Source: an uncultured Coriobacteriaceae bacterium
GTDB taxonomy: Bacteria > Actinomycetota > Coriobacteriia > Coriobacteriales > Coriobacteriaceae
Assembly: GCA_963931605.1 (NCBI GenBank)
Contig: OZ007031.1
Span: 913,332-977,331, forward strand
DNA: 64,000 bases
Direction: 5' to 3'
Below, piece after piece: positions 5,148 through 27,362 of the stretch. Below the pieces are notes generated by a model. It ran no database searches. It was not told the DNA's origin and was given only the letters and a program-made list of their open reading frames with translations. The translations under genes were made by a program, and so were the position numbers. Position 1 is the stretch's first letter, and each line of letters starts with the position of its first letter.

Positions 5148-5223
5148 TGGAGCCAGCAACGAGACTCGAACTCGTGACCCCCGCTTTACGAGAGCGGTGC
5201 TCTACCAACTGAGCTATGCTGGC
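5148..5223 (-). tRNA. tRNA-Thr (anticodon CGU), 76 nt with encoded CCA
   Basis: Cloverleaf folded by hand. Acceptor GCCAGCA/TGCTGGC, D arm GCTC/GAGC, anticodon stem CCGCT/AGCGG with loop CTCGTAA, T arm ACGAG/CTCGT with TTCGAGT loop. Confidence 0.9.
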
Positions 5224-10601: not shown

Positions 10602-11287
10602 TGTTCGTCGTCCTCCTCCCCGCCCGCCTTGCGCGAGCGCTTAGCCTCGGGGTTCTCGAGCGCGAACCGCTCTACCAATAGATGGTAAATCTCGGCGGAG
10701 CGCGCCTTCAAGTAGTTGCCCTTACCGTTTTCAGCATCGAAACGAAGCCGCGCGGCAAGCTGCTCGGCCACGCTCGCGTCGATGGCGCCGCCGGCGAAGG
10801 CGAGCAGGCAGCCCAGCATGTCGCGGTACTCCAAGTCGCCGTGGTAGCACTGGACGGCCTCGTCCACGACCGGCCACACCTGAAGCGACGCGTCCTTGTC
10901 GCACGCGCCCCACGCCGTCAGGAAGCGGAAGGCCGACAGGCGCAGCGTGGCCGAGTCCTCGTCGAACAGCGCCGCCTCGGCGCCGTCGAGCGCCCCGTCG
11001 AGCCCCTCGCGGCTCACGGGCACCAGAAGCGTCAGCGCGTCGAGCACCTCCCAGCGCGTCTGGGCCTCGGGGCGGTACAGCGCGTCCACCAGCTCGTCCA
11101 CGAACCCCGTCAGAAGCGAGGGCTCGCGCTCGGCCAGCAGGTACACCACGTGCGCCGCGAACTGGCGCTTCCGCCGGGTCTGCCCCTCGAGCTCCTCCAC
11201 CAAGCGCGCCAACGCCTCGCGGTCGTGCTCGACGCGCTCCAGCTCCTGCTCGTCGCGCTCGTCCATCTGCTCCTCCGTACGTGCCAT
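10598..11287 (-). CDS. hypothetical protein (helical-repeat-like), 229 aa
   Basis: GGAGG RBS before ATG 11287. The 4-nt overlap with the downstream dehydrogenase gene is consistent with coding. No recognisable catalytic motif. Confidence 0.6.
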   Translation of the reverse strand: MARTEEQMDERDEQELERVEHDREALARLVEELEGQTRRKRQFAAHVVYLLAEREPSLLTGFVDELVDALYRPEAQTRWEVLDALTLLVPVSREGLDGALDGAEAALFDEDSATLRLSAFRFLTAWGACDKDASLQVWPVVDEAVQCYHGDLEYRDMLGCLLAFAGGAIDASVAEQLAARLRFDAENGKGNYLKARSAEIYHLLVERFALENPEAKRSRKAGGEEDDEQ

Positions 11288-11422
11288 GTATACCTCCGTA
11301 ACCCTGATGCGTTTCCCTCTGTATGCGAGAAGGGCGGCTCGGACAGGTTCCGGGCCGCCTGAAGACGCCTGCCGGCGGGGAGGCCGCAGCCGCAGCCCCG
11401 CGCCCCGCCCGCAGGCGCGCCG

Positions 11423-11887
11423 TTATCCCTTGCGCGAGCGACGGCCCGCAGCGCGCTTGCCGCCCGCGGGGTCCGCCGTCTTAGGCGCGTCGCCGCCCAC
11501 CGAGATGAGGTCGGGCTCGTCTGCGCCCTCGGCGCGGCGGCGCCGGCGCGCAGCCCCCGCCCCGCTCGCCGCGGCGCGCTGGTGCGCCTTGTTGATGTTG
11601 AAGAACCGGTCCACGAACTTCCACGGGCCCACGGACTCGCCGAAGGCCATCTTGAGCCCCGTGAGCCCGCCGGCGATGATGCCCACCGGCACCGCCTCGA
11701 GCAGCACCAGGCCGGCCGCGCCGATCAGCGCCCCCAGCACGATGCCGCCTGCGAGAAGCGCCGCGTTCATCCCCCAGAACTCGCCTGCGGTGACGGCGCG
11801 CTCGCCCAGCTCGGTGCCCAGGCGGAACCCGATGAGGATGCCCAGCACGCCGAGCACCGCGAAGCTCACGACAAACGCTATCTCCAC
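11423..11887 (-). CDS. small membrane protein with basic C-terminal tail, 154 aa
   Basis: Three to four hydrophobic helices (FVVSFAVLGVLGILIGF, ALLAGGIVLGALIGAAGLVLL, VGIIAGGL). GTG start lies 3 nt after the upstream stop, with GAGGAG RBS. Confidence 0.6.
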   Translation of the reverse strand: MEIAFVVSFAVLGVLGILIGFRLGTELGERAVTAGEFWGMNAALLAGGIVLGALIGAAGLVLLEAVPVGIIAGGLTGLKMAFGESVGPWKFVDRFFNINKAHQRAAASGAGAARRRRRAEGADEPDLISVGGDAPKTADPAGGKRAAGRRSRKG

Positions 11888-11890
11888 GCG

Positions 11891-12973
11891 CTACTCCTCG
11901 CTGGCGTCGTGATGGTGGCAGCACGAGCCGTCCTCGTGGGCGTGGTCGTGTCCGCAGGTGCACTCGTGGTCGTCCTCGTGATGGTGGCCGCAGCCGCACT
12001 CCTCGCCATGGCCGTGGTCATGGCCGCAGCCGCACTCGTCGTCCTCGTGGGCGGCCGTGTACAGCGACCAGTCAAGCCCGGCCGCCACCGCGTCGGCCTC
12101 CTCCTGGTACAGCAGCGTGATGCCCTGGGTGCCCATCTCGGAGCCGCCGATGGCGTCGAGCATGTCGTAGAGGGTGAAGGCGGTCTCGGCGCCGGGCAGC
12201 GCGATCTCCTTGTCCTCGGCGGTCTGCAGCGCCAGGCCCAGGTCCTTCAGGAAGTGCTTGACCATGAAGCCGGGCTTGTAGTCGCCGTCGAGCGCCAGCG
12301 GGGCGAGCGAGCGCATGGCCCCGGAGTCGCCGGTGCCCGAGCAGATGAGGTCGCGCACCTGAGCCTGGTCAAGGCCGCACTGCTCGGCAAAGGCCAGCGC
12401 GTCGGCCATGCCCACCATGGCGCTGGCGAGCGCCACCTGGTTGGCGAGCTTGGCCTCCTGGCCCTTGCCCGCGCCGCCGAAGCAGCAGATCTTGGACGAG
12501 AAGGTCTCGAGGATGGGGCGCACGGGCTCGATGTCGCGCTCGGTGGCGCCCACGATGAGGGTGAGCGTGCCGGCCTCGGCGCCGGACTGGCCGCCGGTCA
12601 CCGGGCAGTCGAAGGCCACCTTGCCCATGACCTGCGCGGACTCGGCGATGTCGCGCGCAAGCTGCGGCGAGGAGGTCGTGAGGTCGATGAGGTAGGCGCC
12701 CTTCTTGGCGCAGCGCAGAAGCCCCTCGGTGGTGAGGTAGGTCTCCTCCACGTCCTCGGGGTAGCCCAGCATGGTGAAGACCACGTCGGCGCCGGCGGCC
12801 GCCTCGGCGGCGGAGTCGGCCCAACGCGCGCCGCGCTCGACGAGCGGCTCGGCCTTGGCCTTGGTGCGGTTATAGACGGTCAGCTCGTAGCCGGCGTCCA
12901 TGATGTGGCCGGCAATGGGCGCGCCCATGATGCCGGTGCCGATGAAAGCGACCTGCTGCTTGGTGTGTGCCAT
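11891..12973 (-). CDS. NAD(P)-dependent beta-hydroxyacid dehydrogenase family (HIBADH/6PGDH-NAD-binding) with His/Cys-rich C-terminal tail, 360 aa
   Basis: Rossmann motif VAFIGTGIMGAPIA and the SSPQLAR and VTGGQSGAEAGTL blocks. About 50-aa tail EDDECGCGHDHGHGEECGCGHHHEDDHECTCGHDHAHEDGSCCHHHD. AAGGAG RBS. Confidence 0.85.
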   Translation of the reverse strand: MAHTKQQVAFIGTGIMGAPIAGHIMDAGYELTVYNRTKAKAEPLVERGARWADSAAEAAAGADVVFTMLGYPEDVEETYLTTEGLLRCAKKGAYLIDLTTSSPQLARDIAESAQVMGKVAFDCPVTGGQSGAEAGTLTLIVGATERDIEPVRPILETFSSKICCFGGAGKGQEAKLANQVALASAMVGMADALAFAEQCGLDQAQVRDLICSGTGDSGAMRSLAPLALDGDYKPGFMVKHFLKDLGLALQTAEDKEIALPGAETAFTLYDMLDAIGGSEMGTQGITLLYQEEADAVAAGLDWSLYTAAHEDDECGCGHDHGHGEECGCGHHHEDDHECTCGHDHAHEDGSCCHHHDASEE

Positions 12974-13027
12974 GAACTAGCTCCTTACGCGGGGCCTTCC
13001 CCGCCTTGGGTACCGAAAGAGTGACGT

Positions 13028-13076
13028 GCGGGCGAGAAGCGCGCGGCGCTTGCGGGGCGAGGTTCTTCTCGCCCGC
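13028..13076. repeat. hairpin with 12-bp stem GCGGGCGAGAAG / CTTCTCGCCCGC
   Basis: Arms at 13028-13039 and 13065-13076. It carries the GGGCGAGAAG word also used in block C and in the palindromic elements. Confidence 0.7.
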
Positions 13077-13133
13077 GGGCTGCAGCCTGTCGGGGCCGCA
13101 ACTCCGCGCGCTTGGGCCGCGATCCCGTTCGCT

Positions 13134-13202
13134 GGGCCGGGGGCGATAAGGTTCCGAAATCCGATATCGGACGGATTTCGGGTTCTTATCGCCCCCGGCC
13201 CC
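13134..13202. repeat. ~70-bp palindromic intergenic element (copy 1 of 3)
   Basis: GGGCCGGGGGCGATAAGGTTCCGAAATCCG - atatcgga - CGGATTTCGGGTTCTTATCGCCCCCGGCCCC. It belongs to the same family as 41344-41415 and 44281-44348. Confidence 0.8.
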
Positions 13203-13239
13203 TTGGGGCAGCTGCCCCGCCGGAGTCGAGATGTTCCCC

Positions 13240-14202
13240 TTACGCCTCGCCGCGGACGCGCCGGGCGATGCGGTCGGACATGGAGACTTTCTCGGCGCGG
13301 TTCTTGCCCCAGAACAGCACCGCCACCATGCCCGGGCCCACGTGGGCGCCGATGGTGGGGCCCACCGAGCCGCGGATGATGTTGACGTCGGCGCAGCCCG
13401 GCTCCTTGCGGATGGCCGCCTCGAGCCAGTCGGCGTCCTTCTCGGCGTCGGCCGACACGATGGTCATGGGCAGGCCGGCCTCGTGGTCGTAGTTCTCGCG
13501 GAAGCTCTTGACCAGGTTCTTCAGCGCCTTCTTGCGACCGCGGGCAACGCCGGTGAGGGTGAGCGACCCGGTAAGGTCGAACGACAGCAGCGCCTTGATG
13601 TCGAGCTTGCTGGAAAGCTGGGCCGCCGCCGGCGGGATGCGGCCGCCCGCGGCAAGGGAGTGCAGGTTGTCCAGGGTGAAGTAGCCGTGCACGTAGCTTT
13701 TGGACTCTGCGGCCCACGCGGCGATCTCCTTGGCCGTAAGGCCCGCCGTGCGCTGGTGCACGGCCTCCAAGGCGATAAGCTCGCCGCCGGCGCAGGGCAG
13801 CGAGTTGTCGACCACGTACAGCTCGAAGCCGGGGTGGCTTGCGCGCACCTGCTCGGCCGCCTGGCACGCGGCGTCGTAGCTCGAGGAGAGCGCCGCCGGG
13901 AAGCACAGGTACACCGTGGGCGTGCCCTCCTCGGCGCAGCTCTCGAAGAACTCCAGGTAGCGGCCGATCGGCACGGCCGAGGTTGAGGCGCGCACGCCCG
14001 AGCGCAGGCGCTCGTAGAAGTCCTCGGGGGTGATGGAGGCCCACATGTCGTCGTCGTGCACCTCCCCGTCCAAGATGTAGGGGAAGCTCAGCACGTCCAC
14101 ATCGAGCGTTGCGGCAACGTCGGGGTTCAGGTCCGCGCAGGTGTCGATCACGATGCGGCAATGGTCATGGCGTGGCTCGGCGGTGTGGGAAAGGGTGGCC
14201 AT
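13240..14202 (-). CDS. DegV-family (fatty-acid-binding) protein, 320 aa
   Basis: Layout is typical of DegV: IVIDTCADL..., TSAVPIGRY, SSSYDAA, YFTLDNLHSLAAGGRI, GPTIGAHVGPG. GAGGAG RBS before ATG 14202. Confidence 0.85.
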   Translation of the reverse strand: MATLSHTAEPRHDHCRIVIDTCADLNPDVAATLDVDVLSFPYILDGEVHDDDMWASITPEDFYERLRSGVRASTSAVPIGRYLEFFESCAEEGTPTVYLCFPAALSSSYDAACQAAEQVRASHPGFELYVVDNSLPCAGGELIALEAVHQRTAGLTAKEIAAWAAESKSYVHGYFTLDNLHSLAAGGRIPPAAAQLSSKLDIKALLSFDLTGSLTLTGVARGRKKALKNLVKSFRENYDHEAGLPMTIVSADAEKDADWLEAAIRKEPGCADVNIIRGSVGPTIGAHVGPGMVAVLFWGKNRAEKVSMSDRIARRVRGEA

Positions 14203-14322
14203 TCTCGCTCCTCTCGCGTTGGGCGGCGGGAAAGCCCGCGGCGCCCGTACAAACGTGCAAAGCGGCCGCCCCGTACCAGGGCGGCCGCCCAACATGCACA
14301 GCTGTGTCGTATTGTACGCGCT

Positions 14323-14904
14323 CTACGCGGTCAGCTTGGGCTTGATGATGCCATATCCACCATTCTTACGGCGATAGATCACGTTGATGACACCGGTGAG
14401 CGAGTTCTCGAAGACGTAGAAGTCGTGCCCGATGAGGTCGGTCTCAACCAGGGCCTGCTCCTCGGTCATCGGGGTGATCTCGATGACCTTCTCGCGCACG
14501 AGCAGGTCGTCGGGCTCCTCTTCCTCCGGCTCGATAAGCTCGGCCAGGTCGTCGACGTGCTCGGCGGGGGCCACCTCGGCGGCAGACTCGCCGCGCTGGC
14601 GCCGGTCGACCACCTTGGTCTTGAACTTGCGCAGCTGGCGGGCGATCTTGTCAGCCGCAGCATCGATGGCCAGGTACATGTCGGAGCCGTGCTCGGCAAC
14701 GCGCACCACGTAGCCGCGGCAGCGCACCGTGACTTCCACGATGGCCGGCTGCGCGATGGAGGGGTTCTTCTCGTAGCGAAGCACGACGTCAACCGTCATG
14801 GGCTCGATATCAAAGACCTTGACGGCCGTCCCGATCTTCTCGTCAACATGAGCGCGCAGTGCGTCGGTGACCGTAGTTTTACGCCCAGAGACCGTGATTT
14901 CCAT
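14323..14904 (-). CDS. hpf: ribosome hibernation-promoting factor, long form, 193 aa
   Basis: MEITVSGRKTTVTDALRAHVDEKI at the N-terminus, AIDAAADKIARQLRKFK, and the C-terminal dimerisation domain IGHDFYVFEN...NVIYRRKNGGYGII. Confidence 0.9.
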   Translation of the reverse strand: MEITVSGRKTTVTDALRAHVDEKIGTAVKVFDIEPMTVDVVLRYEKNPSIAQPAIVEVTVRCRGYVVRVAEHGSDMYLAIDAAADKIARQLRKFKTKVVDRRQRGESAAEVAPAEHVDDLAELIEPEEEEPDDLLVREKVIEITPMTEEQALVETDLIGHDFYVFENSLTGVINVIYRRKNGGYGIIKPKLTA

Positions 14905-15089
14905 GCTCACTCCAATCTGTTGGGGACAGTACAACGTGCGTCTGCTGTGCTTGTACCCAAATTAGCGCGGGCATACGGCGTGCGTCCGGTAAGCGAAAAG
15001 GTCGGGCCGAGGTGTATACGGAGGCCGCACGTTGGATAAGGGCGCGGCACGCCCGTGCGGGCGAGAAGCGCCGGCGGCGGGCGCCGTCG

Positions 15090-16106
15090 TTAGAAGAACG
15101 TGTCCGTGGAGTTGAGCGCGGAGTGGTCGAGACCGTCGGCGCCGGTTGAGGAGGTGCCCGCAGCGTCCGTGTCCGCGGAAGAGCCGCCCGCGGCGCCGGT
15201 GCCCTCATCGCTCTCGGCGTCTGAGCTCAGCGCTGCGTCCTCGTCGTCGCTCTCCTCGGAGATCACCACGCCGGCAACCTCCATGCCCGAAAGGTCGGTC
15301 GGCAGGTCGCCGAACCACGCGGTGCGCACCGCGTCGAGCACGCCGTTGGACGCGAGGGTGGAAAGCGCGCCGGAAACCGCCTCGGCAAGCTCCGCGTTGC
15401 CCGCGGCGACCGCCGCCACAACCTCGGACGGCGCGCCAAGCGTGCCGACAAGCGCCACGTCGTCGTAGGCGCGGGTGAGGTAGCCGCCCGCGCTGGCGTT
15501 GCACACGGCGTAGTCAACCTGGCCGGACTCCAGCGCCGACAGGCACTCGTTCACGTTGGAGCAGCTCATCTCGGTGTAGGTGACGTTTGAGCGCTCGAGC
15601 TGCTGCTGGGAGGCCGAGCCGTCCTGCACGGCGATGCGCGCGCCCGAGAGGCTCTCGGCCGAGACCTCGGCGCCAGCCTCGCCGGTCGTCCGCGCGAACA
15701 CGCCCATGGCCTCGGTGAAGACGGAGCCGGTGGAGACGGTGTCGTCGGGAAGGGCGTCGGCCTCGGCGCCGAGGTACACGTCGGCCGTGCCTTCGGCAAC
15801 GTCAGAGGGCGAGGCGTTCATCACCGAAGCGGAGAGTCCCAGCTCGGAGGCAAGGGCACGGGCAACGTCGGCCGTGTAGCCCGACGGGTTGCCCTCGGCG
15901 TCGAGCATGCCCATGGGAGCGGACGCCGTGTTCACCGCGACGGTGAGCGTGTCGGGCTCGACCAGCGCCGCAGAAGAGACCTGCGCGGTGCGCGGCTGGG
16001 AGGTTTTCTCGGAAAGGGGCGGCGTGGAAAGCGCGCAGGCGCTGAGCCCAACCAGCGCGAGCACCGCGCAGCACCCGGCGACAAAGCACGCGACCCAACG
16101 TTTCAT
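15090..16106 (-). CDS. lipoprotein, family-3 (amino-acid type) ABC substrate-binding protein with acidic low-complexity C-terminus, 338 aa
   Basis: Signal peptide plus lipobox LVGLSAC. An SBP_bac_3-like core is present (DTLTVAVNTASAPMGM, NPSGYTADVARAL, IAVQDGSASQ). GGAGG RBS before ATG 16106. Confidence 0.75.
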   Translation of the reverse strand: MKRWVACFVAGCCAVLALVGLSACALSTPPLSEKTSQPRTAQVSSAALVEPDTLTVAVNTASAPMGMLDAEGNPSGYTADVARALASELGLSASVMNASPSDVAEGTADVYLGAEADALPDDTVSTGSVFTEAMGVFARTTGEAGAEVSAESLSGARIAVQDGSASQQQLERSNVTYTEMSCSNVNECLSALESGQVDYAVCNASAGGYLTRAYDDVALVGTLGAPSEVVAAVAAGNAELAEAVSGALSTLASNGVLDAVRTAWFGDLPTDLSGMEVAGVVISEESDDEDAALSSDAESDEGTGAAGGSSADTDAAGTSSTGADGLDHSALNSTDTFF

Positions 16107-16544
16107 GGAGCCTCCCCCTCGTTGCAAGCTATATGGTTCCCCCCAGCTGACCTGGTCTTTGCCCCCACACTTGCGCACCGGGGCGTTTGCTCGGGCCGCC
16201 GCGGCGGCCTTCACGACTAACCCGCTCGCCCGCGGGGCAACGTGCCCCAGAGGTGGTATACGGACGGTGCGACTTACTCCTAGGACGCGCCATGATCGCG
16301 CGGCGCGCACGCCGTCGCTTACGTGGACCCTTTCGGCCGCGTCTGCCTTGGGATTGAACAGGCCTCGCGCAAGGGAGCGCGCCAACGGGCACCGTACCCG
16401 CGTGCGTGCGTCTTGCACCTATTCGCAACCACAGACCTGGGAGGAACGTGCGGCAGTATAACAAGAAGAAGCCTAACCGTAAACCTGAACTTGAATGTTT
16501 TGGACAAACGAACAGAGAGGCCGCGTCAGCCGACATGCCGACGC

Positions 16545-17165
16545 GGTGCAAGCGGGCGAAAAGGGGTGTTCACGCAGGGGCGCGCGGGCGAGAAGGGTGT
16601 TCATGCAGGGGGCGCGCGGGCGAGAAGGGTGCTCGTATGAGAGCGCGCGGGCGAAAAGAGCGTTCATACGAAAAGCGTGGGCGAGAAGAACGAGGCGCAT
16701 GGGCGAAAGGAGCGTTCATACGAGCGCTGTGGGCGACAATTGCGTTCATACGACAAGCGTGGGCGAAAAGGACGTTCGTACGGACGCGGTTTTGTCGGCT
16801 AAGCCTTCGCACGGTATTTTTATACCGCAATGCGACCAGCTAGCGGGGAGGCGCATGCCGTAGTGCCGCCCCTACGGGCAACTCCAGTCGTATGATTGCT
16901 TTTCTCGCCCATGCCTGTCGTATGAGTGTTGTTTTCGCCCATACCCGTCGTATGAATGCCTTTTTCGCCCACGCGGTTCGTATGGACGTTGTTTTCGCCC
17001 GGCAGGTCCGTACGAATGGTGATTTCGCCCACGAAGCTCGTATAAGTGCTGTTTTCGCCTGCTTGGTTCGTATGAGCCGTTATTGTCGCCCGCGTGGTTC
17101 GCATGGATGATGATATCGCCCACGGAACTTGCCACGAGGCTCGCACGCACGCTCTTTTCGCCTGG
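16545..17165. repeat. mirror repeat block C: 8 + 8 units of ~30 bp (GGGCGAAAA-N6-TCATACG-N8 and its reverse complement)
   Basis: Left units start at 16554, 16586, 16618, 16649, 16679, 16701, 16731, 16761. Right units start at 16889, 16919, 16949, 16979, 17009, 17039, 17069, 17100. Confidence 0.9.
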
Positions 17166-17398
17166 AAGCGTCCGCTCCCCCGCCCCGCGCGCGCAGCAAA
17201 TGCTGCCGCACGCTCTCTACCTGGAGCTGTCGTATAAACGCAACAGGTGCCCCCGCGGAGAAACGCTCGGTCGCCTCCAGCCTGCCCGTACGGGTGAGAA
17301 CGACGGCACCCCATAGGCGTTTTGCGCATATCGGCAGCGCGCGCACCGGGCCGAACGCACCGCAGCTATACTGAACGCATCCTCCTCCCGCGTCCCGC

Positions 17399-18304
17399 AT
17401 GTCGGGAGGGATCTGCATGTACGCCGCATCCAGCTGCAACCGAATACCCGCTGCCGAACAGACACCTACCGTCGCCGGGATATCCGCCGATGTCGGGATA
17501 CCCACCGGCGCCGGTATACCCACCGCCAACTGGACATCCACCGCATGCGACCCAAGCGTTTCGGCCACCGCAGGCACCCATGGCGATACCCGCGGCCTGG
17601 GCGCACGCCTGAGAAACGCCGCGCTCGAGCTGTTGAGCCCCACGCGCTGCATCGGCTGCGAGAAGCCCGGGGAGCTCATCTGCGCGGAGTGCCTGGAGCG
17701 CATCGAATGGATCGACGCGGCAACGGCCTGCCTTGCGTGCGGCGCGCCCTTTGGGTCGGTCACCTGCACCGAATGCCGCGGCGCCCCCAGCGCCCTTGCC
17801 TGGTGCCTCGCCTGCGCCTCGTACGAAGAGCCGCTCCCCAGCCTCATCCGTGGCTACAAAGACGGCGGCGAGCGGCGCTTGGCCGAGGTAATCGCCGAGA
17901 TGATGGCGGCGCGCTACCTCAGCGCGTGGCGCGACGCAGGCACGCGCCTTGCCGGCTGCGTGCCAGAGGCGATCGTGTTTGTGCCGGCAACGCGCGCGGC
18001 CTTTCGCCGCCGCGGGTTCGACCACATGGAGGCGGTGGCGCGCGGACTTGCCGCCTATGTGGGCCTGCCGCTTGCCGACGCGCTTGCCAAGCGCGGGCGC
18101 GCAGACCAGCGCGAGGCCGGCCGCGCGGGGCGCCTCGCGCAGGCGCAGGGCGTCTACCAGGTGGTGCGAGACGTGCGCGGCGCGCGCCTCCTGCTTATCG
18201 ACGACGTGATAACCACCGGCGCCACCATGAACGCCGCCGCGGGCGCGCTTGTTGCCGCGGGAGCCGCGCAGGTGGCGGGCTTGGCGCTCGCCCGCGTGTG
18301 GTAA
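17399..18304 (+). CDS. comF: ComF-family protein (phosphoribosyltransferase domain); start codon uncertain
   Basis: Zinc-finger-like CIGCEKPGELICAECL...CLACGAPFGSVTCTEC and PRTase motif LLLIDDVITTGATM. The first ~60 codons contain 3 x 18-bp tandem repeats and may not be translated. Confidence 0.8.
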   Translation: MSGGICMYAASSCNRIPAAEQTPTVAGISADVGIPTGAGIPTANWTSTACDPSVSATAGTHGDTRGLGARLRNAALELLSPTRCIGCEKPGELICAECLERIEWIDAATACLACGAPFGSVTCTECRGAPSALAWCLACASYEEPLPSLIRGYKDGGERRLAEVIAEMMAARYLSAWRDAGTRLAGCVPEAIVFVPATRAAFRRRGFDHMEAVARGLAAYVGLPLADALAKRGRADQREAGRAGRLAQAQGVYQVVRDVRGARLLLIDDVITTGATMNAAAGALVAAGAAQVAGLALARVW

Positions 18305-18343
18305 CGCAAGGTGCAGGCCGTGCGCCGCCGCGGGCGCCCTCCC

Positions 18344-19909
18344 CTACTCGGGTAGCACGATCGTGAACACCGTGTGCTCGGCGTCGGACGCGCACGAGAT
18401 GGTGCCGCCGTGCGCAGTGACGATCTCCTTGGCGATGGCCAGGCCCAGCCCCGCGCCGCCGCGGTTGGTGGCGCGCGCCGCGTCCAGACGGTAGAACTTC
18501 TCGAAGATCACGTCCAGCTTGGCCTTAGGGATGGGATCGCCTTGGTTCTCGAAGCGGATCACGCAGCTGTGGTCCTCGGCGCGCTTCTCGGCCTCAACGC
18601 GGATGGCGGTGCCCTCGTAGCTGTAGGCGATGGCGTTTTTCATCACGTTGTTGAACACGCGGGCCATCTTGTCGCCGTCGACCAGCACGGTGAGCCCCAG
18701 CGGCACGGACAGCTCCACGGTCTTGCGCTGCTCGGCGAGGGTGGGATAGAACTCTTCGGCCACCTGGGCGAGCATGAGGTTCAGGTCGACGTAACCGCGC
18801 GTGAGCACGATGTCGTGGAAGTCGAAGCGCGTGATGTCGAAGAACTCCTCGATAAGCGCGTCCAAGCGGTGCGCTTTGTCCAGCGCGATGCCCGTGAAGC
18901 GCACGCGCTGCTCGGCCGGCAGGTCGGGCGCCTCGTTGAGCAGCGAGAGGTAGCCCACCACGCTTGCCAGCGGCGTCTTGAGGTCGTGCGCGAGGTAGGT
19001 CACCAAGTCGTCCTTGCGGCGCGACTCGTCGCGCAGCGCCTGCTCGCTCATGCGCTCGCGCGCGCGGACGCGGTTGAGGGCGGCCTCGACCTCCAAGAAG
19101 TCGCTGTCCAGGTCGCCCCAGTCGTTCGGGTTCTCGATGAGGCGACTCACCAGGTGCTCGGCAATGGCGGAGTCGGCCTCGGCCTGGCCGGCGGCAACGC
19201 CGCGGCGGTACATGTCGCGCGCGAGGAAGAACAACCCGCACACCGCCAGGCACACCACGAAGCCCAAGAACACGAACACCCAGCGAATGTCAAGGTAGAC
19301 GAGGGGAAACGCCGAGTAGATCATGCCGCCGGCGAGCATGGTGAGCCCCCAGGCGGTCCCGCCGATGATGACGGCGTGGCGCACGTCGATGAAGCGGTCG
19401 ATCAGCACGTAACCGCCGAACAGCACCGCCACCAGCAACAGGAAGCTCTCGCTCAGAAGCGTGAACGTCAAAACGAGCAGCACGACAAAGGCGGCCAGGC
19501 GGCTGTTGAACAGCGTGCGCAGCCAGTCCGGAGCGGCGGCACGGCCAGGGCCGGCAGCGCGGTGAAGTGGCGCGGCGGCGGCATCGGGCGCATAGCCGTC
19601 GGACGACGCAGGCGAGAAGGGTGCGCCCGCGGCTCCGGCGCCCGCCGCATGTGAGGACGCGCCTGTGGCAGCGTTTGCCGAGCGAGCTGACGGGGCGGCG
19701 GAAGATGCCGGGGAGCCGGCCGTCGCGCGGCCGCCGTAGCTGGTGCTCTTATCCCCCGCCGCATACGCCCGCACCTCGATGGTGCGCGCAGGATCGGCAG
19801 GGTCGGGCGAGCCGGGCGCGTTCGGCCGACCGGTCAGCGGGTTCACCGGCGTGCGCAGCGGATCCGTCTGCTGCACGGCATCCCATACATGCGGCTTTCT
19901 GATCTTCAC
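18344..19909 (-). CDS. sensor histidine kinase, VanS-like, with ~130-aa Ala/Pro/Gly-rich N-terminal extension, 521 aa
   Basis: H-box YLAHDLKTPLASVVGYLSLL, N-box ARVFNNVMKNAIAYS, G-boxes RATNRGGAGLGLAIAKEI. As I recall it, the block order closely resembles enterococcal VanS. GTG start with AAGGAG 6 nt upstream. Confidence 0.88.
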   Translation of the reverse strand: MKIRKPHVWDAVQQTDPLRTPVNPLTGRPNAPGSPDPADPARTIEVRAYAAGDKSTSYGGRATAGSPASSAAPSARSANAATGASSHAAGAGAAGAPFSPASSDGYAPDAAAAPLHRAAGPGRAAAPDWLRTLFNSRLAAFVVLLVLTFTLLSESFLLLVAVLFGGYVLIDRFIDVRHAVIIGGTAWGLTMLAGGMIYSAFPLVYLDIRWVFVFLGFVVCLAVCGLFFLARDMYRRGVAAGQAEADSAIAEHLVSRLIENPNDWGDLDSDFLEVEAALNRVRARERMSEQALRDESRRKDDLVTYLAHDLKTPLASVVGYLSLLNEAPDLPAEQRVRFTGIALDKAHRLDALIEEFFDITRFDFHDIVLTRGYVDLNLMLAQVAEEFYPTLAEQRKTVELSVPLGLTVLVDGDKMARVFNNVMKNAIAYSYEGTAIRVEAEKRAEDHSCVIRFENQGDPIPKAKLDVIFEKFYRLDAARATNRGGAGLGLAIAKEIVTAHGGTISCASDAEHTVFTIVLPE

Positions 19910-20009
19910 GGGCTGCTCCTTCGTCCTTGATTGCGTACCAGTATACGAAGGCGTGCGGACACGATTCCCGAAAGAGTTACTTAAGTTGGCACGGCGGCTT
20001 GACGGCGCC

Positions 20010-22975: not shown

Positions 22976-25615
22976 TCATCGCAGGCCGTAGGCGCGCTTG
23001 ACGCGGGCGAGCTTGCGGCACCACGGCGCGTACAGCACCAAAAGGAACGCCACCGTTGCCACGCCGTGCGCGATGTCGAACGGCAGCGCCGCGGCGTACA
23101 CGGCGGCCAGCTGGGACGCCGTCTGGGGATGGTAGAACCCGATGATGCTCCACAGGTTGAGCACCACCCCGTACAGCGGTCCCGAAAGGAACCCGTACAA
23201 GCAGAGCGGCCAGGCGCGCAGCAACGAGCGGATCGCGGATCGCACGCGGCGCATGCTGCTGCGCACGCTGCGGCCAGCGTTCGGCGCCGAGGCCCCCGCG
23301 CCGGCACGCGCAGCCTGCGGGCCACATTCCTGCGCGGGACGGGCAGCGGACGCTGCGGCTCCAAGCTCGGACGCGCCGGCAACCGTGCCAAGCACGCCGG
23401 GCACACCGGATGCGGCGCCCTTCTCAGACGCGCCCCGAAACGCGCCGACCTGCGCCAGCACACCGGCCAGGTAGCCCACGAGCCCCCATGCGTACATCTG
23501 CCAGGGCGTCCACGGCCCCTGGCCCAGAAAGAAGTTGGAGACGAGCGCCGCCAGTGCCCCCACCATAAAGCCGCTCTGCCGCCCAAAGACCGCGCCGGCC
23601 ATGATGGCGATAGCGCTCACCGGCTTGAAGTTGGGCAGCGGCGCGAACAGCACGCGCCCGGCCGCCGCGCACGCTGCGAGCACCACGGCGGGCATCACGT
23701 CGCGCAGACGCGGGGCGCGCCGCTCGTAGTGCGAGAAGAACAGCGCGATGGCCGCAAGCACCACCACCAGCGAGAGCAGGGCCGCCTGCTGAACGCGCGT
23801 CACCGCGCAGAACGCGAGCACAGCGGGAACCGCGCCGACGGCCAGCACCTCGAGCACCGCGCCGAACACGCGGCTCAGCGTGCGCGGCCTCCCTCCCGGG
23901 CTGTCGACGCGCGCACGGGACGCTCCGCCGTCGGTACGCGGCGCCCCCGCACTCGCTGCGCCAGCCGTGCTGGCCGCACCGGACGCGCCGTCCGCTGCGC
24001 CAGCGCCCCCGTCCTCGGAGCAGCCGCCCTCAGCCTCGTCCTTTTCGTTCTCGTCGTCCTCCCCCGCCAGCAGCGCGCCGTACAGGCGCGCCGAGTCGCT
24101 CGGGCGGTACAGCAGGCTCCCCGCAAAGAAGCGCGGCGCCGGCTCGGTGCAGGCAACCTCCCCGTCAAAGACCAGCGAGACCTCTTCGGCGCAGGCCAGC
24201 GCAAAATCCAGGTCGTGCGTCACCAGAACCACGGTGCGCCCCTCGTCCGCAAGGCCCGTAAGCTCGCGCGCCACGTCGGCGGCGGCGCAAGGGTCGAGCC
24301 CCTTGGTGGGCTCGTCCAAAAACAGCAGCCGCGGCGCGGCGAGCAGCACCTTGGCAAGCGCCAGCTTCTGCTGCTGCCCGCCGGAAAGGTCGTACGGGTG
24401 GTGGTCGGCCAGCCCCGCCAACCCGAAGCGCTCGAGCATGGCGCGCTCGTCGGCCGGCGCATACCCGCAGCGGCCCCGCCACTCGGCCAGCTCGTCGGCA
24501 ACCGTATCGCACACGAGCAGGGCCTTGGGGTCTTGCGGCAGCAGCGCCTGCGAGCTGGCGAGCGGGCTGTCAACCCGCCCGCGCTGCGGCTTGTCCGCGC
24601 CGGCGAGCACGCGCAGCAGCGTGGACTTGCCGCAGCCGTTGCCGCCCACAAACGCGTGCACGCCGCCTGCGCGCACCTCGGCCGAAAGCCCGCGCAGCAC
24701 CCAGGCACCCGCGCGGTCGTAGCGGAAGAAGACGTCGCGCGCGGCCAAGACCACTTCGCCCGCCCGCGCAGGCGCCTCCAACCCACCGCGCGCCGCCATA
24801 GCGCCCGCGTGCCCGCGCCCGGCCGGCGCGCCAGCCGCCGCGCACGCCCGCTCCCAGCGCGCCCAGCGCGGGGCGAGCAGGCGCTTCTCCACCGCCGCAC
24901 GCGGGGCCCGGGGCACTTCTCGCCCCAGGTTGACGCGCTGCGTGGCCAGGCCCTCAACCTCCTCGGGGGCGTGCGTGGCCATGACCACCGTGATCCCCAG
25001 CTCCCGGTTCACCCGTCCCAGCATCGCGGTGAACTGCTCGCGCGCCACCGGGTCGAGCTGCGCGGTCGGCTCGTCGAGCAGCAGCAGCCCCGGGCGCAGC
25101 GCCAGCACCGCCGCCAAGTTCACCAGCTGCTTCTGCCCGCCAGAGAGCGTCTCGGTCCCCGCGCCCACCCACGGCTCGATGCCGAAGAAGTGCGCAACCT
25201 CGGCCACGCGCCGGCGCATGTCGCCAACGCCCGCGCCCAGGCTCTCCAGCCCAAACGCCAACTCGTGCCACACCGTGTCGCACACGATCTGCGCCGCTGG
25301 GTCCTGCATCACATAGCCGATCTCGGCTGCCGACCAGCGCGCATCCGTGCCCTCTGCCGCGCGTCCGCCCTCAACCAGCGCGCGCCCGAGCACGCGCACG
25401 CTGCCGCGCCGCTCGCCCGCCGGCGCGAGCTCGGGCTTGAGCGAGCGCAAAAGCGTGGTCTTGCCGCACCCCGTGGGCCCGGCGAGCACGCAGAAAGCGC
25501 CCTTCTCAACCGCAAGGTTCACGCCCTCGAGCACCGCCTGAGCCGGCGCGCCCGCCGCAGCGGACGGGTAGGCAAAGCCGTACCCCGCCACCCGCACTAC
25601 CTGCTCGCGCGCCAC
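22976..25615 (-). CDS. ECF transporter fusion protein: two ABC ATPase domains (EcfA-EcfA') + C-terminal S-component-like membrane domain, ~879 aa
   Basis: Walker A GPTGCGKTT and GGNGCGKST, signatures LSGGQKQ and LSGGQQQ, Walker B LLLLDEPT and LLFLDEPT. Five to six TM helices follow (PNFKPVSAIAIMAG, ...FDIAHGV). GTG 25615 was chosen because GGGAG lies 8 nt upstream. It overlaps the ecfT end; start is +/- 9 nt. Confidence 0.8.
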   Translation of the reverse strand: MAREQVVRVAGYGFAYPSAAAGAPAQAVLEGVNLAVEKGAFCVLAGPTGCGKTTLLRSLKPELAPAGERRGSVRVLGRALVEGGRAAEGTDARWSAAEIGYVMQDPAAQIVCDTVWHELAFGLESLGAGVGDMRRRVAEVAHFFGIEPWVGAGTETLSGGQKQLVNLAAVLALRPGLLLLDEPTAQLDPVAREQFTAMLGRVNRELGITVVMATHAPEEVEGLATQRVNLGREVPRAPRAAVEKRLLAPRWARWERACAAAGAPAGRGHAGAMAARGGLEAPARAGEVVLAARDVFFRYDRAGAWVLRGLSAEVRAGGVHAFVGGNGCGKSTLLRVLAGADKPQRGRVDSPLASSQALLPQDPKALLVCDTVADELAEWRGRCGYAPADERAMLERFGLAGLADHHPYDLSGGQQQKLALAKVLLAAPRLLFLDEPTKGLDPCAAADVARELTGLADEGRTVVLVTHDLDFALACAEEVSLVFDGEVACTEPAPRFFAGSLLYRPSDSARLYGALLAGEDDENEKDEAEGGCSEDGGAGAADGASGAASTAGAASAGAPRTDGGASRARVDSPGGRPRTLSRVFGAVLEVLAVGAVPAVLAFCAVTRVQQAALLSLVVVLAAIALFFSHYERRAPRLRDVMPAVVLAACAAAGRVLFAPLPNFKPVSAIAIMAGAVFGRQSGFMVGALAALVSNFFLGQGPWTPWQMYAWGLVGYLAGVLAQVGAFRGASEKGAASGVPGVLGTVAGASELGAAASAARPAQECGPQAARAGAGASAPNAGRSVRSSMRRVRSAIRSLLRAWPLCLYGFLSGPLYGVVLNLWSIIGFYHPQTASQLAAVYAAALPFDIAHGVATVAFLLVLYAPWCRKLARVKRAYGLR

Positions 25616-26502
25616 AGCCACCACTCCCTTGCCGCCAAAACCTCCGGTACCAGCATGAGCGCCGCGTACGGGGCGTAGGCCCACCACGGCGCAAGCGCGT
25701 CGAGCGCCAGGCGCGGGTAAAACGAGAACCGCGCGGCGAGCTGCCACAGCGCCAGCGCGCTCACAATCGCCAGCATCGCGATCACCACCAGGACACCGAC
25801 GTCTGCGCGCGTCAGGCGGTAGCGCCGATAGCTCGTGCGCCGCGCGCCGCACCCGTAGCCGCGGGCGCGCATGGCGTCGCCGCGCACCAGCCCGTCCTCC
25901 ATGCCCCAGCCCATGAGAACCGAGACGGTGCGCAGCCGGTCGGAAGCGGCCGCGCGCGCGTCCCTGGGCGCCGCGGCGCTTATCGAGCGCTGGACGGCGC
26001 GGATGGCCCGGCCGCGCGTCACAAACTGCGGCACCAGCCTGAGCACCTGCGAGACCATGAGCGAAACCGTGGGCAGGGCGCGTCCGAACAGCGCCAGCGT
26101 GGCCTCGCTCGTCATGCAGGCCGCGTAGCTTGCAAACCACAGCAGCACCGCCGCCATCATGGCGCCCGAGCACGCCCCGTACGCCAGCGACTCGACGTAG
26201 ATGGCGCGCGAGCCTATGCGCGCAAGCTCGGTAGACCCCGAAGCCGAGAAGAACGGGTTCAGCACCAGGGCGAGAACCACCATGGGCAGCGCCCAGAGAA
26301 GCGAGCGCGCCGTGGCCCGCGGCCCGCGCGTGACGCATGAGCAGCCCAAGGCGCCTGCCAGCGCAAGCGCCACGCACACCGGCTGCATCGCAGCCATGGC
26401 GAGCACGATGACGCAGGCGAGGTAGCAAAACGCCACCGCCGGGTGGTAGGTTGCGAACACGTTGGACAAACCGTTGGGCACGCGCGGCCCCTTCTCTTTC
26501 AT
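25597..26502 (-). CDS. ecfT: ECF transporter transmembrane (T) component, CbiQ/EcfT family, 301 aa
   Basis: Polytopic membrane protein with the Arg-containing coupling-helix region (AIRAVQRS..., GDAMRARGY). It sits immediately upstream of the ATPase genes. Confidence 0.82.
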   Translation of the reverse strand: MKEKGPRVPNGLSNVFATYHPAVAFCYLACVIVLAMAAMQPVCVALALAGALGCSCVTRGPRATARSLLWALPMVVLALVLNPFFSASGSTELARIGSRAIYVESLAYGACSGAMMAAVLLWFASYAACMTSEATLALFGRALPTVSLMVSQVLRLVPQFVTRGRAIRAVQRSISAAAPRDARAAASDRLRTVSVLMGWGMEDGLVRGDAMRARGYGCGARRTSYRRYRLTRADVGVLVVIAMLAIVSALALWQLAARFSFYPRLALDALAPWWAYAPYAALMLVPEVLAAREWWLWRASR

Positions 26503-26605
26503 ACCGTGCCAAAAAGGGACGGGTGCGCTTTAGCCGCGGCAAAGCGCACCCGTCCCTTTTTTGGCGCGCCCCGCAGCCGCACGGCCGCGGGGCGCGCCCT
26601 TCTCG

Positions 26606-27082
26606 TTACTCGAAGCTGGTGACGTAGGTGAAGGTCACCGCGTCGCCGTCCTTGAGCGTGAGCTGGTCGCACGAGACCTGCGCGTCCTCGCCGTTCACGC
26701 TGAACATCCAGCCGCTCGTGTCGCCGAAGTCATAGGCGGCCAGGCCCCCGATGCCCTCGACGTACTTGCCGTACTGGCTGTCGCTCGCGTTGATCGAAAG
26801 GCCCGTGGCCACCAGCGCGTCGTAGGCCGTAGCGCCCTCGTCGAGCTCGACGGTCTCGTCGTAGGCCACGCTGCCGTCGGCCGCGCTGGAGTCGACCTTC
26901 ACGGCCACCGCCATCTTGGCATCCTCGGCAGACGCCGCGGCGGCGCTGCCGGCGGGCGCGGTGCCGGCGTCGGTGGCAGCGGTGGTGCCCGAGCAGCCGC
27001 TCACCGCGAAGGCGAGCACCAGGCAAACGAAAAGGGAGAGCAGAGCGGTGCGCTTCTTAGGCGCAGATGCGGTTCCGAACAT
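26606..27082 (-). CDS. DUF4430-domain lipoprotein, 158 aa
   Basis: Signal peptide plus lipobox FAVSGC. C-terminal GWMFSVNGE...LKDGDAVTFTY is typical of DUF4430. ATG 27082 has GAAAGG upstream. Confidence 0.75.
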   Translation of the reverse strand: MFGTASAPKKRTALLSLFVCLVLAFAVSGCSGTTAATDAGTAPAGSAAAASAEDAKMAVAVKVDSSAADGSVAYDETVELDEGATAYDALVATGLSINASDSQYGKYVEGIGGLAAYDFGDTSGWMFSVNGEDAQVSCDQLTLKDGDAVTFTYVTSFE

Positions 27083-27139
27083 GCGGACACCTTTCTTCCA
27101 GGACCCCGGCCGCCATGCGCGCCGCGCCGGGCCCGCCCG

Positions 27140-27265
27140 CGCGAGCCCGCAGATGGAGAGGCGATCCGACTTGTTCCGCAGCGCACCGCGGAAGTTACGG
27201 TTACTGGTATAGCCGGGGACTTGCACCCCGATTCCCCTGAGCAGCCGCCGGCTCCCCGGCCGCGC
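27140..27265 (-). promoter_or_regulatory. probable cobalamin (B12) riboswitch aptamer in the leader of the DUF4430-ecfT-ecfAA'S operon
   Basis: The minus strand reads AGGGGAATCGGGGTGCAAGTCCCCGGCTATACCAGTAACCGTAA...CCGCGGTGCGCTGCGG..AAGTCGGATCGCCTCTCC. This parallels the GGGAA-GGTG-AA-TCC / CCNGNAACNGTAA core and B12-box of RF00174 as I remember them. No covariance model was run. Confidence 0.6.
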
Positions 27266-27362
27266 CGCCCGCGCCTGCGCGCCATCCATCAGGTCAGTGA
27301 TCTATGCGCCCACCAGTGTAGCAGCAACCACCCCTCCCGCACCAGAAAACCCGAGCGACAAA

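Follow-up and report, generated by a model that had tools for sequence, protein, structure and literature searches.

A mirror-image pair of 30-bp repeat arrays between the raiA RNA gene and comF of an uncultured gut Coriobacteriaceae bacterium, possibly one copy of a dispersed foldback-type repeat element

The DNA analysed here (the window) is a stretch of 64,000 nucleotides from an uncultured gut Coriobacteriaceae bacterium, in which the spacer between a raiA RNA gene and comF contains a pair of facing 30-bp repeat arrays. The raiA motif RNA gene (16138-16445, minus strand; Rfam RF03072, 127 bits) lies outside the element and is given as context, and is preceded by a predicted promoter on the same strand (16455-16483, TTTACG-17-TATACT). 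On the other side comF has a TATACT -10 box on the plus strand (17367-17372), a leader hairpin in which CCTCCCG (17384-17390) pairs with CGGGAGG (17403-17409) and sequesters the Shine-Dalgarno sequence, and an ATG at 17417. The arrays sit between these back-to-back promoters. An SBP gene, hpf and a two-component system are further neighbours of the locus. The only transposase seen was an IS256-family fragment at ~3.7-4.6 kb of the window, with no arrays beside it.

The array unit is GGGCGAAAA-N6-TCATACGA-N7, with a bipartite core of 23 bp comprising box A (GGGCGAAAA), six free bases and the near-palindromic box B (TCATACGA). Eight sense units form the left arm (16554-16790, plus strand), starting at 16554, 16586, 16618, 16649, 16679, 16701, 16731 and 16761. 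The unit at 16679 (L5) is truncated to 22 bp, and the outermost three are degenerate, with periods of 31-32 bp. They are faced by antisense units, nine within 16881-17163 and, counting a tenth, another at 17223-17252. The nine units of the right arm (16888-17163, antisense on the plus strand) have inverted box B starts at 16888, 16918, 16948, 16978, 17008, 17038, 17068, 17099 and 17141; a strict 30-bp period is kept in the first six units, after which the spacing widens to 31 and then 42 bp. A degenerate tenth unit (GGGCACCTGTTGCGTTTATACGA..., 17223-17252, minus strand) was identified with the help of a position weight matrix (PWM) scan. The arms, each ~240-280 bp, are of opposite polarity, and unit decay runs from the centre to the outside. 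TRF reported periods of 32 and 30 for the left arm and of 30 or 60 for the right. The first-pass annotation had described 8 + 8 units across a centre of ~100 bp. All 16 of its unit starts were correct and its left-arm count stood; the right arm was extended by a ninth unit (17134-17163) and the degenerate tenth, and the centre measured 88 bp.

The innermost left unit is part of a dyad junction (16761-16799) consisting of box A, N6, a palindromic box B (TCGTACGG, 16776-16783), N6 and an orphan inverted box A (TTTTGTCGGC, 16790-16799). The centre that follows (16800-16887) is unique sequence. It contains the AT hairpin CGGTATTTTTATACCG at 16812-16827, the position previously given for it, and no significant fold was found across 16800-16887. 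At the outer edge of the left arm, a GC-rich hairpin (16519-16546) is terminator-like on the minus strand, with a weak T tail; its assignment to the element is uncertain. The GC content of the arrays is 52-58%, against ~68% for the genome. An excess of G+T at the variable positions of the plus strand is real in both arms of the window array and, by eye, absent from one of the further loci described below (L170).

The unit was enriched over shuffled sequence. The pattern GGGCGAAAA-N6-TCATACG, allowing up to three mismatches, had 12 matches in the 64-kb window, where shuffled sequence predicts 0.36, with all matches inside the array, and a junction pattern matched 10 times against 0.34 expected. 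In the PWM scan the 12 units from which the matrix was built scored 27-37 bits and two held-out units 17.8-18.5 bits; the best site outside the array in the window scored 12 bits, inside the shuffle range. The 1.3-kb spacer was identical in a 2.39-Mb circular-type contig (ERZ21564551 s19629.ctg024876c) and in independent megahit and Logan contigs, and differed at one base in a SPAdes contig. This agreement between independent long-read-type and short-read contigs indicates that the array is not an assembly artefact; misassembly was thereby ruled out, in line with the first-pass view that the arms are not an assembly duplication.

The arrays are diverged and non-coding. GC3 was 0.47-0.66 in the array frames versus 0.83-0.89 in real genes, and the information content of the unit by codon phase was 1.16, 1.10 and 0.98 bits, without a 3-base periodicity. 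Protein-coding function was rejected on these grounds and for want of a Shine-Dalgarno sequence and of homologues: among 5.8 billion proteins searched, the sole match was the ORF of the same locus. CRISPR was likewise rejected, as the first-pass annotation had done. A CRISPR array would have repeats of 23-55 bp alternating with unique spacers about as long, a leader and, as a rule, neighbouring cas genes; the variable stretches here are only 6 and 7 nt, the arms have opposite polarity and no cas gene was among the called genes around the locus.

Comparison with related genomes showed that the array is not a conserved feature of the locus. Three sister species (L001, L098 and L099) share the divergent raiA RNA/comF layout and the conserved promoters, and have no array at this site; the two promoters are separated by only ~30-400 bp of unrelated sequence. 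The raiA RNA promoter and its upstream sequence to 16505 are conserved in all three, and homology stops where the element-bearing insert starts. The right-hand limit of this lineage-specific insert lies at 17367-17419, the interval containing the comF -10 box. A stretch at 17200-17215 that resembles part of the raiA promoter in inverted orientation was not significant. Among 29 Coriobacteriaceae comF loci examined with TRF, none had an array upstream of comF, and the raiA RNA lies downstream of comF in 11 of the 13 Coriobacteriaceae comF loci scanned with Rfam.

Within the species, the left arm varies in copy number by whole-unit steps (8, 7 or 5 units) and the right arm has the same number of units in all strains. 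With regard to a possible invertible promoter switch, in which populations would carry the centre in both orientations, the orientation of the centre was the same in six of six haplotypes from independent samples, at the level of contigs. Divergence of the arms between strains is at least that of the neighbouring genes. One of ten strain SNPs in the arrays falls on the 14 of 30 unit positions with high information (binomial P ~0.02, calculated by hand), and this avoidance suggests that the boxes are under ongoing constraint. The left arm offers a ready strain-typing marker for this uncultured gut species.

Two further loci were found when the spurious reading frame of the right arm was used in a phmmer search, which returned two ORFs (P0012 and P0013) that cross mirror arrays. 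Their DNA (L170/L171 and L172) has the unit consensus, 30-bp period and mirror layout of the window array, together with outward unit decay and a palindromic innermost left box B; the palindromic form TCGTACGA occupies the equivalent position in both. Their centres are 91 and 100 bp long. Comparison of the three centres revealed no common structure or sequence, and the flanks are also unrelated; at L170 the neighbours are the co-directional hemC and cobA/hemD. That the called ORFs of these loci switch from a sense to an antisense frame across the centre is explained by a non-coding mirror repeat alone. The further loci come from the same samples as the window species or from sibling samples: L170 and L171 were recovered from the two samples that yielded L089 and L090, contigs of the window species, and for BRZ_HT, one of these samples, the coverages agreed (3.39 against 3.40). 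From this co-occurrence and coverage, L170 and L172 probably belong to the window's genome.

The family is known from these three loci only. In ~82 kb of contiguous chromosome there is one copy of the array, and no isolated single site above chance was found in the window, in the adjoining 18 kb or in fetched loci totalling 1.2 Mb, on which basis a regulon motif was rejected. An exact two-unit pattern had no matches in IMG/VR and JGI metagenomes. With a relaxed two-unit pattern, the multi-match metagenome contigs that were inspected (L108, L122, L138 and L150) carried an unrelated coding 30-bp repeat (GGGCGACGACAGCGGTTCTGCGCCC...), and the remaining matches were mostly single. A single-unit pattern gave 41 single chance matches and no arrays in IMG/VR, and blastn searches of 72,556 plasmids and 50,697 phages were without a match.

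Conservation across the three loci is confined to the boxes. Box identity was 83% both within and between loci, and spacer identity was 41% within and 37% between loci (random, 27%). This difference points to sequence-specific recognition rather than base pairing or coding. The suggestion of an iteron-like binding array was thus strengthened in one respect, since conservation is focused in two contiguous boxes, and weakened in another, since dispersed copies make a plasmid-type iteron origin less likely. The accompanying proposal that the conserved blocks share one DNA face did not hold: 30 bp corresponds to 2.86 turns at 10.5 bp per turn, not three, so each unit is turned by ~51 degrees relative to the one before and the boxes follow a spiral path on the helix.

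The reading we favour, at a probability of roughly 0.45, is that the array is one copy of a small, lineage-restricted foldback family, whose units would be protein-binding sites and whose origin would be selfish or mobile. Each copy would consist of two facing arms of tandem 30-bp units round a 90-100-bp centre that differs between copies, with the core as the putative binding site of a sequence-specific DNA-acting protein and the strict 30-bp phase of the inner units allowing cooperative side-by-side binding along an arm. The element would be MITE-like, comparable to '2-TIR' Foldback/Galileo copies or to the BrickBuilt MITE, and the protein that recognises it would be encoded elsewhere. It may have landed between the back-to-back promoters, now ~830 bp apart, and the length of the left arm may change through unequal exchange between units. 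The anatomy, the lack of coding, the dispersal, the conservation of the boxes, the absence from this site in sister species and the variation in copy number are observed; binding by a protein, movement and an influence on adjacent genes are predictions from sequence. Because the copies have unrelated neighbours, a dispersed family is likelier than a regulator dedicated to raiA and comF or an iteron origin of the plasmid type.

Inverted arms and several dispersed copies at unrelated sites, both seen here, are traits of MITEs and foldback elements. The three loci showed no transposase, no duplicated target site and no conserved termini; the outer units fade so that the ends cannot be placed, and the sister species are too diverged to supply an empty site. 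Two further features count against parts of this reading. Typical MITE families consist of near-identical copies, and those seen here are old, with nothing but the boxes in common; in transposons conservation usually peaks at the outer tips, and here the inner units are the best conserved. The small number of known loci (three) and the single copy in ~82 kb of chromosome also count against it, as does the lack of an identified binding protein. Long-term retention of the boxes at resident copies would be more in keeping with a host function than with a dead mobile element.

A host function of this kind is rather unlikely overall, but it accounts for part of the evidence directly. A chromosomally encoded protein would coat both arms in phase, join them across the centre in the manner of Lrp-type or partition-type nucleoprotein assemblies, and modulate the raiA RNA and comF promoters, or mark sites. 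Boxes equally conserved within and between loci and avoided by strain SNPs suggest maintenance in place; the inner units hold a strict 30-bp phase, and the element lies exactly between divergent promoters, with each arm oriented alike towards the nearer one. Such a platform is, however, difficult to reconcile with L170, which lies between co-directional, functionally unrelated genes, or with the sister species, which manage the same promoter pair without the element. The lack of isolated sites in ~82 kb, the free variation in the copy number of one arm and the absence of a candidate binding protein encoded nearby also argue against it.

A speculative and rather unlikely extension is that the arrays represent an undescribed prokaryotic foldback class or chromosomal 'mirror array', on which a dedicated protein would recognise the bipartite 23-bp core, polymerise inwards along the facing arms and pair them round an arbitrary 90-100-bp segment, units being added or homogenised at the centre and decaying outwards. 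If so, bacteria would have an equivalent of the eukaryotic Foldback transposons, or the arrays would be nucleoprotein landmarks of a new kind, recognised by a protein of their own.

A long hairpin RNA or a DNA cruciform is improbable. The region would be transcribed and its arms would pair into a ~250-bp rod of 9-bp and 8-bp helices with internal loops, a substrate for processing by an enzyme such as RNase III or an influence on the stability of neighbouring transcripts. An imperfect hairpin of this size, as the first-pass annotation proposed, is thermodynamically possible on either strand: folding z-scores were -8 to -12 for the window array and -7 to -12 across the three loci, all of which fold better than shuffles. 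The arms are in register with the same period on both sides, L170 lies within an apparent operon and would be co-transcribed, and terminator-like hairpins follow the left arm on the minus strand at two of the three loci, in numbers not above those in shuffles. At the variable positions, however, mirrored unit pairs were no more complementary than non-mirrored pairs, on which ground register-specific pairing of the arms was rejected, and box variants in the pairs compared by hand (L8/R1 and L7/R2) were not compensated. Selection for the hairpin is therefore not borne out. The box sequence itself is conserved and not merely its complementarity, the truncated unit L5 disrupts the register, and no consensus promoter pointing into the array was found. 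An Rfam search of the array at E values up to 10 gave nothing besides the neighbouring raiA RNA, so that tests for a structured non-coding RNA family yielded neither a covariance-model match nor compensatory changes.

It is very unlikely that the arrays are a functionless by-product, produced by tandem duplication and fold-back inverted duplication at the TCGTACGA palindrome and drifting neutrally since. A perfect short palindrome at the inner end of the left arm, beside unique spacer, is the classic footprint of fold-back priming, and the strain divergence of the arms and the instability of the left arm would also fit. Neutral drift, though, cannot hold the boxes at 83% while the spacers drop to ~40%; the same boxes, period and positional variant at three unrelated loci would go unexplained, and unrelated centres and flanks argue against recent segmental copies.

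An origin, the remnant of a plasmid-type iteron array or centromere, or a fork trap is less probable still. The arrays resemble iteron origins, the centromeres parC and sopC, and TerI/TerII of Bacillus subtilis, which face each other, and the asymmetric bipartite sites here face each other across an AT-containing centre, as polar Ter sites do. At 16.8 kb, however, there is neither a GC skew switch nor an inflection in cumulative skew, and genes lie mostly on the minus strand on both sides of the locus; with no skew or gene-strand switch at the site, a chromosomal origin or terminus was rejected. No rep, par or dnaA gene is present in the window or 10 kb beyond, the plasmid and phage searches and IMG/VR gave no array, and three copies with different centres fit no single origin or terminus. 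The chance that the arms are decapeptide-repeat genes, represented by a 169-aa ORF (16820-17329, minus strand; repeat GExxxHTTxx) whose inverted copy in the left arm would be a pseudogene, is negligible: a period divisible by three, five of six open unit frames and a 164-aa product called by the gene caller in one assembly (L092) are outweighed by GC3, codon periodicity, Shine-Dalgarno and homologue evidence and by the frame swap across the centre at the other loci.

Bacterial interspersed repeats such as REP, BOX, Correia and MITEs influence transcription, how long mRNAs last and how genomes rearrange, and much has been learned from the proteins that recognise them. If the proposed foldback-type family has a dedicated binder or transposase, it would offer a simple system for cooperative polar DNA recognition and for foldback growth. 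The raiA RNA is a widespread structured RNA, and the array, which parts its promoter from that of comF in one species only, provides a natural comparison for promoter spacing.

To our knowledge, no bacterial family with two facing arrays of phased, bipartite, asymmetric units round a free centre has been described; literature searches for bacterial mirror arrays gave analogues only, in agreement with the first-pass annotation. Lrp-type sites between divergent promoters (for example pap) lie about three helical turns apart, but number at most six, are AT-rich and roughly palindromic, and form no mirror array or dispersed copies. Plasmid iterons, R1 parC, F sopC and P1 parS (A and B boxes round an IHF bend) are phased sites, some bipartite or in two blocks, that bind one protein cooperatively. 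They adjoin rep or par genes on plasmids and phages, whereas the array is chromosomal and present in several copies with no such genes near.

BOX and REP/BIME elements are intergenic and hairpin-forming, with a variable number of modules and conservation mainly at protein-recognition motifs. REP units are palindromic, number in the hundreds and are accompanied by a RAYT transposase, and BOX elements have A, B and C modules; the array, in contrast, has an asymmetric unit in homogeneous arrays of opposite polarity. REPINs are described as short modular non-coding repeats (PMC3116915). Assignment to the REP/BIME/REPIN class, which is defined by a palindrome of ~20-40 bp, many copies and RAYT, was rejected because only box B is near-palindromic in an otherwise asymmetric unit and ~82 kb contain one copy. 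The BrickBuilt MITE of Porphyromonas gingivalis, a minisatellite inside a MITE, is species-restricted, strictly intergenic and multi-copy, with a tandem repeat of ~23-30 bp in variable copy number (PMC4596501). Its one direct array is flanked by small inverted ends and has leader and tail subunits that are conserved, whereas the present element has two facing arrays whose units include spacers, and lacks a conserved leader or tail.

Foldback/Galileo-type transposons carry two long inverted arms of tandem short repeats, with highly dynamic arm length and dispersed copies (PMC3573991). They are eukaryotic, have defined termini and depend on transposases known to belong to the P or MULE superfamilies, whereas the array has no known transposase or termini, three copies and best-conserved inner units. 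What the two have in common is inverted arms built of repeats, round short or heterogeneous middles.

Sequence inspection bears out the first-pass annotation of a mirror pair of 30-bp repeat arrays at 16545-17165, in the spacer between the raiA RNA and comF. The left arm holds eight plus-strand units of the form GGGCGAAAA-N6-TCATACGA-N7, whose two conserved parts are termed box A and box B, starting at 16554, 16586, 16618, 16649, 16679, 16701, 16731 and 16761 (periods of 32, 32, 31, 30, 22, 30 and 30 bp). The right arm is built from the reverse complement of this unit, with six units at a strict 30-bp period followed by spacings of 31 and 42 bp, and it extends beyond the eight units first described to a ninth (17134-17163) and a degenerate tenth (17223-17252). 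Unit quality falls from the centre outwards in both arms. Box B of the innermost left unit is palindromic (TCGTACGG) and is followed six bases on by an orphan inverted box A (16790-16799), so that the true unique centre comprises only the 88 bp at 16800-16887. The arrays were enriched over shuffled sequence: the core pattern, with at most three mismatches, gave 12 matches in the whole window versus 0.36 expected, and all 12 lie inside the array. A position weight matrix gave scores of 27-37 bits for the 12 units used to build it and approximately 18 for two left-out units, and the best window site outside the array reached 12 bits, the same level as shuffles. On the plus strand, the variable unit positions in 16554-17163 are G- and T-rich in both arms whatever the unit polarity (GC skew +0.40 and +0.21; AT skew -0.23 and -0.24), their unit-sense composition is unequal between the arms (chi-square P = 7e-5), and the plus strand therefore folds better than the minus strand (-355 versus -295 kcal/mol); by eye, this bias does not recur in L170, another mirror-array locus.

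Searching for the exact protein of the neighbouring SBP gene retrieved five assemblies: a 2.39-Mb contig, by its name apparently a circular long-read assembly, with the rest produced by megahit, SPAdes or Logan. The 1.3-kb spacer is identical in four of them and one base different in the fifth, so the array is not a misassembly. Six haplotypes from independent samples were then compared, and unit number was found to vary between strains in one arm: all six carry the same right-arm units, whereas the left arm has eight units in the window, seven in L086/L087 (lacking one 32-bp unit) and five in L088-L097 (84 bp shorter, with hybrid units), changes expected from unequal exchange between units. 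The arms show 0.5-2% substitution divergence versus approximately 0.8% in neighbouring genes, so the element overall is not unusually constrained; of ten true SNPs located in units, only one affects any of the 14 high-information positions among the 30 (hand-calculated binomial P ~0.02). L086 is a recombination mosaic relative to window 11000-19940, with a breakpoint near 16107-16138: identity is ~94-98% left of the raiA RNA (6.3% mismatches in the SBP gene) and 99-100% over that RNA and to its right.

The right arm's 72-aa antisense-frame ORF, used as query in a full phmmer run against 1.84 billion representative proteins, retrieved two short ORFs, P0012 and P0013, each composed of four sense-frame decapeptides (GExxTHTTxx), 33-35 unrelated residues and five or six antisense-frame repeats (RMNxxFAHxx). 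A frame with this order of repeats must run straight across a mirror array of the same unit, and neither ORF has the GC3 signature (0.62-0.63 versus 0.81-0.89). L170/L171 carries four good sense units (2724-2843) and eight antisense units (to ~3183) around a centre of 91 bp; L172 has four sense units (237-356) and five antisense units (to 614) around one of 100 bp. The unit consensus is common to the three loci, with inner units spaced exactly 30 bp. The palindromic TCGTACGA occurs in the innermost left unit at all three, the inverted box A follows the palindromic unit in L170 as in the window, and units decay outwards at both additional loci. No similarity was found among the three centres or among the flanks, and no common or significant fold of the centres. 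The neighbours of the L170 array are hemC and a cobA/hemD fusion gene, which are co-directional. The two samples that yielded L170 and L171 also contain the window-species contigs L089 and L090, coverage in the BRZ_HT sample is 3.39 and 3.40 for the mirror-array and window-species contigs, and the L172 run is adjacent in accession number to two runs containing the window species; from these links we infer that all three loci belong to the window species. Pattern matching also picked up metagenome contigs (L108, L122, L138 and L150) with 5-12 copies of GGGCGACGACAGCGGTTCTGCGCCCGCYGC, a highly regular 30-bp tandem repeat that is unrelated and probably codes for a decapeptide repeat.

The host is an uncultured Coriobacteriaceae member close to Collinsella and Enorma, and its closest comF among species representatives shows 76% amino-acid identity. 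In 11 of 13 Coriobacteriaceae comF loci scanned with Rfam, the raiA RNA follows comF closely and shares its strand. The window species and the sister-species loci L001, L098 and L099 have a divergent layout, with the raiA RNA, SBP gene and hpf to the left and comF to the right, which looks like a lineage-specific inversion or rearrangement common to the four. In the window, the SBP gene is inserted between the raiA RNA and hpf (raiA). The raiA motif RNA (RF03072; 16138-16445, minus strand; Rfam, 127 bits) has a good predicted sigma-70-type promoter, TTTACG-17-TATACT, at 16483-16455, and comF, which the gene callers start at 17417 (plus strand), is preceded by a TATACT box (17367-17372, plus strand) and a leader hairpin. 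In L001, L098 and L099 the raiA promoter and ~25 bp upstream are conserved, to the equivalent of window 16505, as are the comF -10 box and leader hairpin; the sequence between the promoters is only ~30, 170 and 400 bp long, respectively, and is unrelated. No repeat unit above chance was found in these three loci or in 29 Coriobacteriaceae comF loci. Conserved ends around an unrelated, unit-free middle in three relatives mark ~16506-17340 as a lineage-specific insert between two back-to-back promoters.

The gap between these promoters is also expanded, with other content, in L099 (1256-2125; a 34-nt inverted repeat, an 18-nt hairpin and three ~46-nt direct repeats) and L098 (4362-5000), and seems prone to gathering hairpin-forming inserts. 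The comF leader hairpin (17384-17409, plus strand) forms between CCTCCCG and CGGGAGG, the latter being the Shine-Dalgarno sequence, 7 nt ahead of the ATG. The three sister species have one of like design and altered sequence (L001 ~4862-4900 and equivalents in L099 and L098), and the hairpin may act in the translational control of comF. An 18-bp tandem repeat of 3.4 copies inside the comF 5' end (17464-17525, plus strand) encodes a G-I-P-T-G/A-A type N-terminal extension absent from the sister species, whose matches start at approximately residue 70-80. Elsewhere in the window are a truncated IS256-family (Transposase_mut / MULE) transposase gene (~3733-4611; 292 aa as called in contig L173), adjoining tRNA-Thr (5148-5223, minus strand) and with no repeat units at its flanks; an AdoCbl-II riboswitch match (27159-27238, minus strand; 37.3 bits versus the Rfam gathering score of 36.5) within a stop-to-stop ORF at 26606-27301; and a 1188-aa fused ABC ATPase/membrane transporter ORF at 22976-26542.

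Over 32 units from the three loci, the 17 box positions are 83% identical whether units are compared inside one locus or between loci. The 13 spacer positions are 41% identical within and 37% between loci versus 27% for random sequence; a conserved C at position 13 accounts for part of this excess. Selection acting only on base pairing cannot give this pattern, because it would leave the boxes free to co-vary. Mirrored unit pairs matched no better than non-mirrored pairs over the 13 spacer positions (5.3 versus 5.8 identities; 9.3 versus 8.4 with wobble pairs), and no compensation of box variants was found in the facing unit. Read most simply, each unit is a target recognised through its sequence. 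Its 9-bp box and its near-palindromic 8-bp box are separated by six bases and cover about two duplex turns, a layout typical of two-domain or dimeric DNA-binding proteins. The boxes had been placed on one DNA face, but 30 bp is 2.86 turns at 10.5 bp per turn, so bound proteins would spiral by ~51 degrees per unit rather than line up, an arrangement that still allows a helical protein filament.

The element is tentatively explained as one member of a non-coding, dispersed family of foldback repeats, whose units would act as protein-binding sites and whose origin is more likely selfish or mobile than in dedicated regulation (probability roughly 0.45). This reading is favoured by copies at unrelated intergenic sites, absence from the orthologous site in sister species, a GC content below the surrounding genome, unstable copy number, and nearest analogues that are known mobile or repetitive elements. 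Against it, no transposase, termini or target-site duplication is known for the three-locus family, only three copies are known and they have just the boxes in common, and conservation is best near the centre.

A host architectural or regulatory platform would account for boxes maintained in place and for the symmetric position between two divergent promoters, but is rather unlikely, leaving unexplained the unrelated neighbours at L170 and the sister species that do without the element. The transcribed long hairpin or cruciform offered in the first-pass annotation is thermodynamically plausible at all three loci (z-scores -7 to -12); that part stood, but covariation, a promoter and an Rfam relative are lacking, making this improbable. 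Neutral fold-back duplication is very improbable, as neutral decay of duplicated DNA cannot give boxes at 83% identity versus spacers at ~40%, and a remnant of an origin, terminus or plasmid, disfavoured by the tests run, is more doubtful still. Least credible is a protein-coding repeat: many ORFs cross the array because five of six unit frames are open, but none of them is credible, as their GC3 is 0.47-0.66 versus 0.83-0.89 in comF, the SBP gene and hpf, information content has no three-base periodicity (1.19, 1.22 and 1.10 bits per codon phase in the window; 1.16, 1.10 and 0.98 over the 32 units), conservation forms two contiguous boxes that include would-be wobble positions, and the sole relative of the 169-aa array ORF among 5.8 billion proteins is the same ORF in one other assembly.

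No matches were found in Rfam, plasmid and phage collections, IMG/VR or JGI metagenomes, and a literature search found no published description of a bacterial element with this mirror-array architecture, in line with the first-pass annotation, which knew of no described class of this kind. The element belongs to the broad kind of bacterial interspersed non-coding repeats, but its design, in which a free centre is flanked by two facing arrays whose units are phased, bipartite and asymmetric, is new. The recurring design and clear sequence-specific constraint make it more than an orphan local repeat; to date the family is known from a single uncultured species and three copies, and its function and partner protein are putative. 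Returning to the foldback-family reading, the closest analogues are Foldback/Galileo, whose inverted arms are internally repetitive and which has '2-TIR' copies (PMC3573991), and the BrickBuilt MITE, which contains a minisatellite (PMC4596501).
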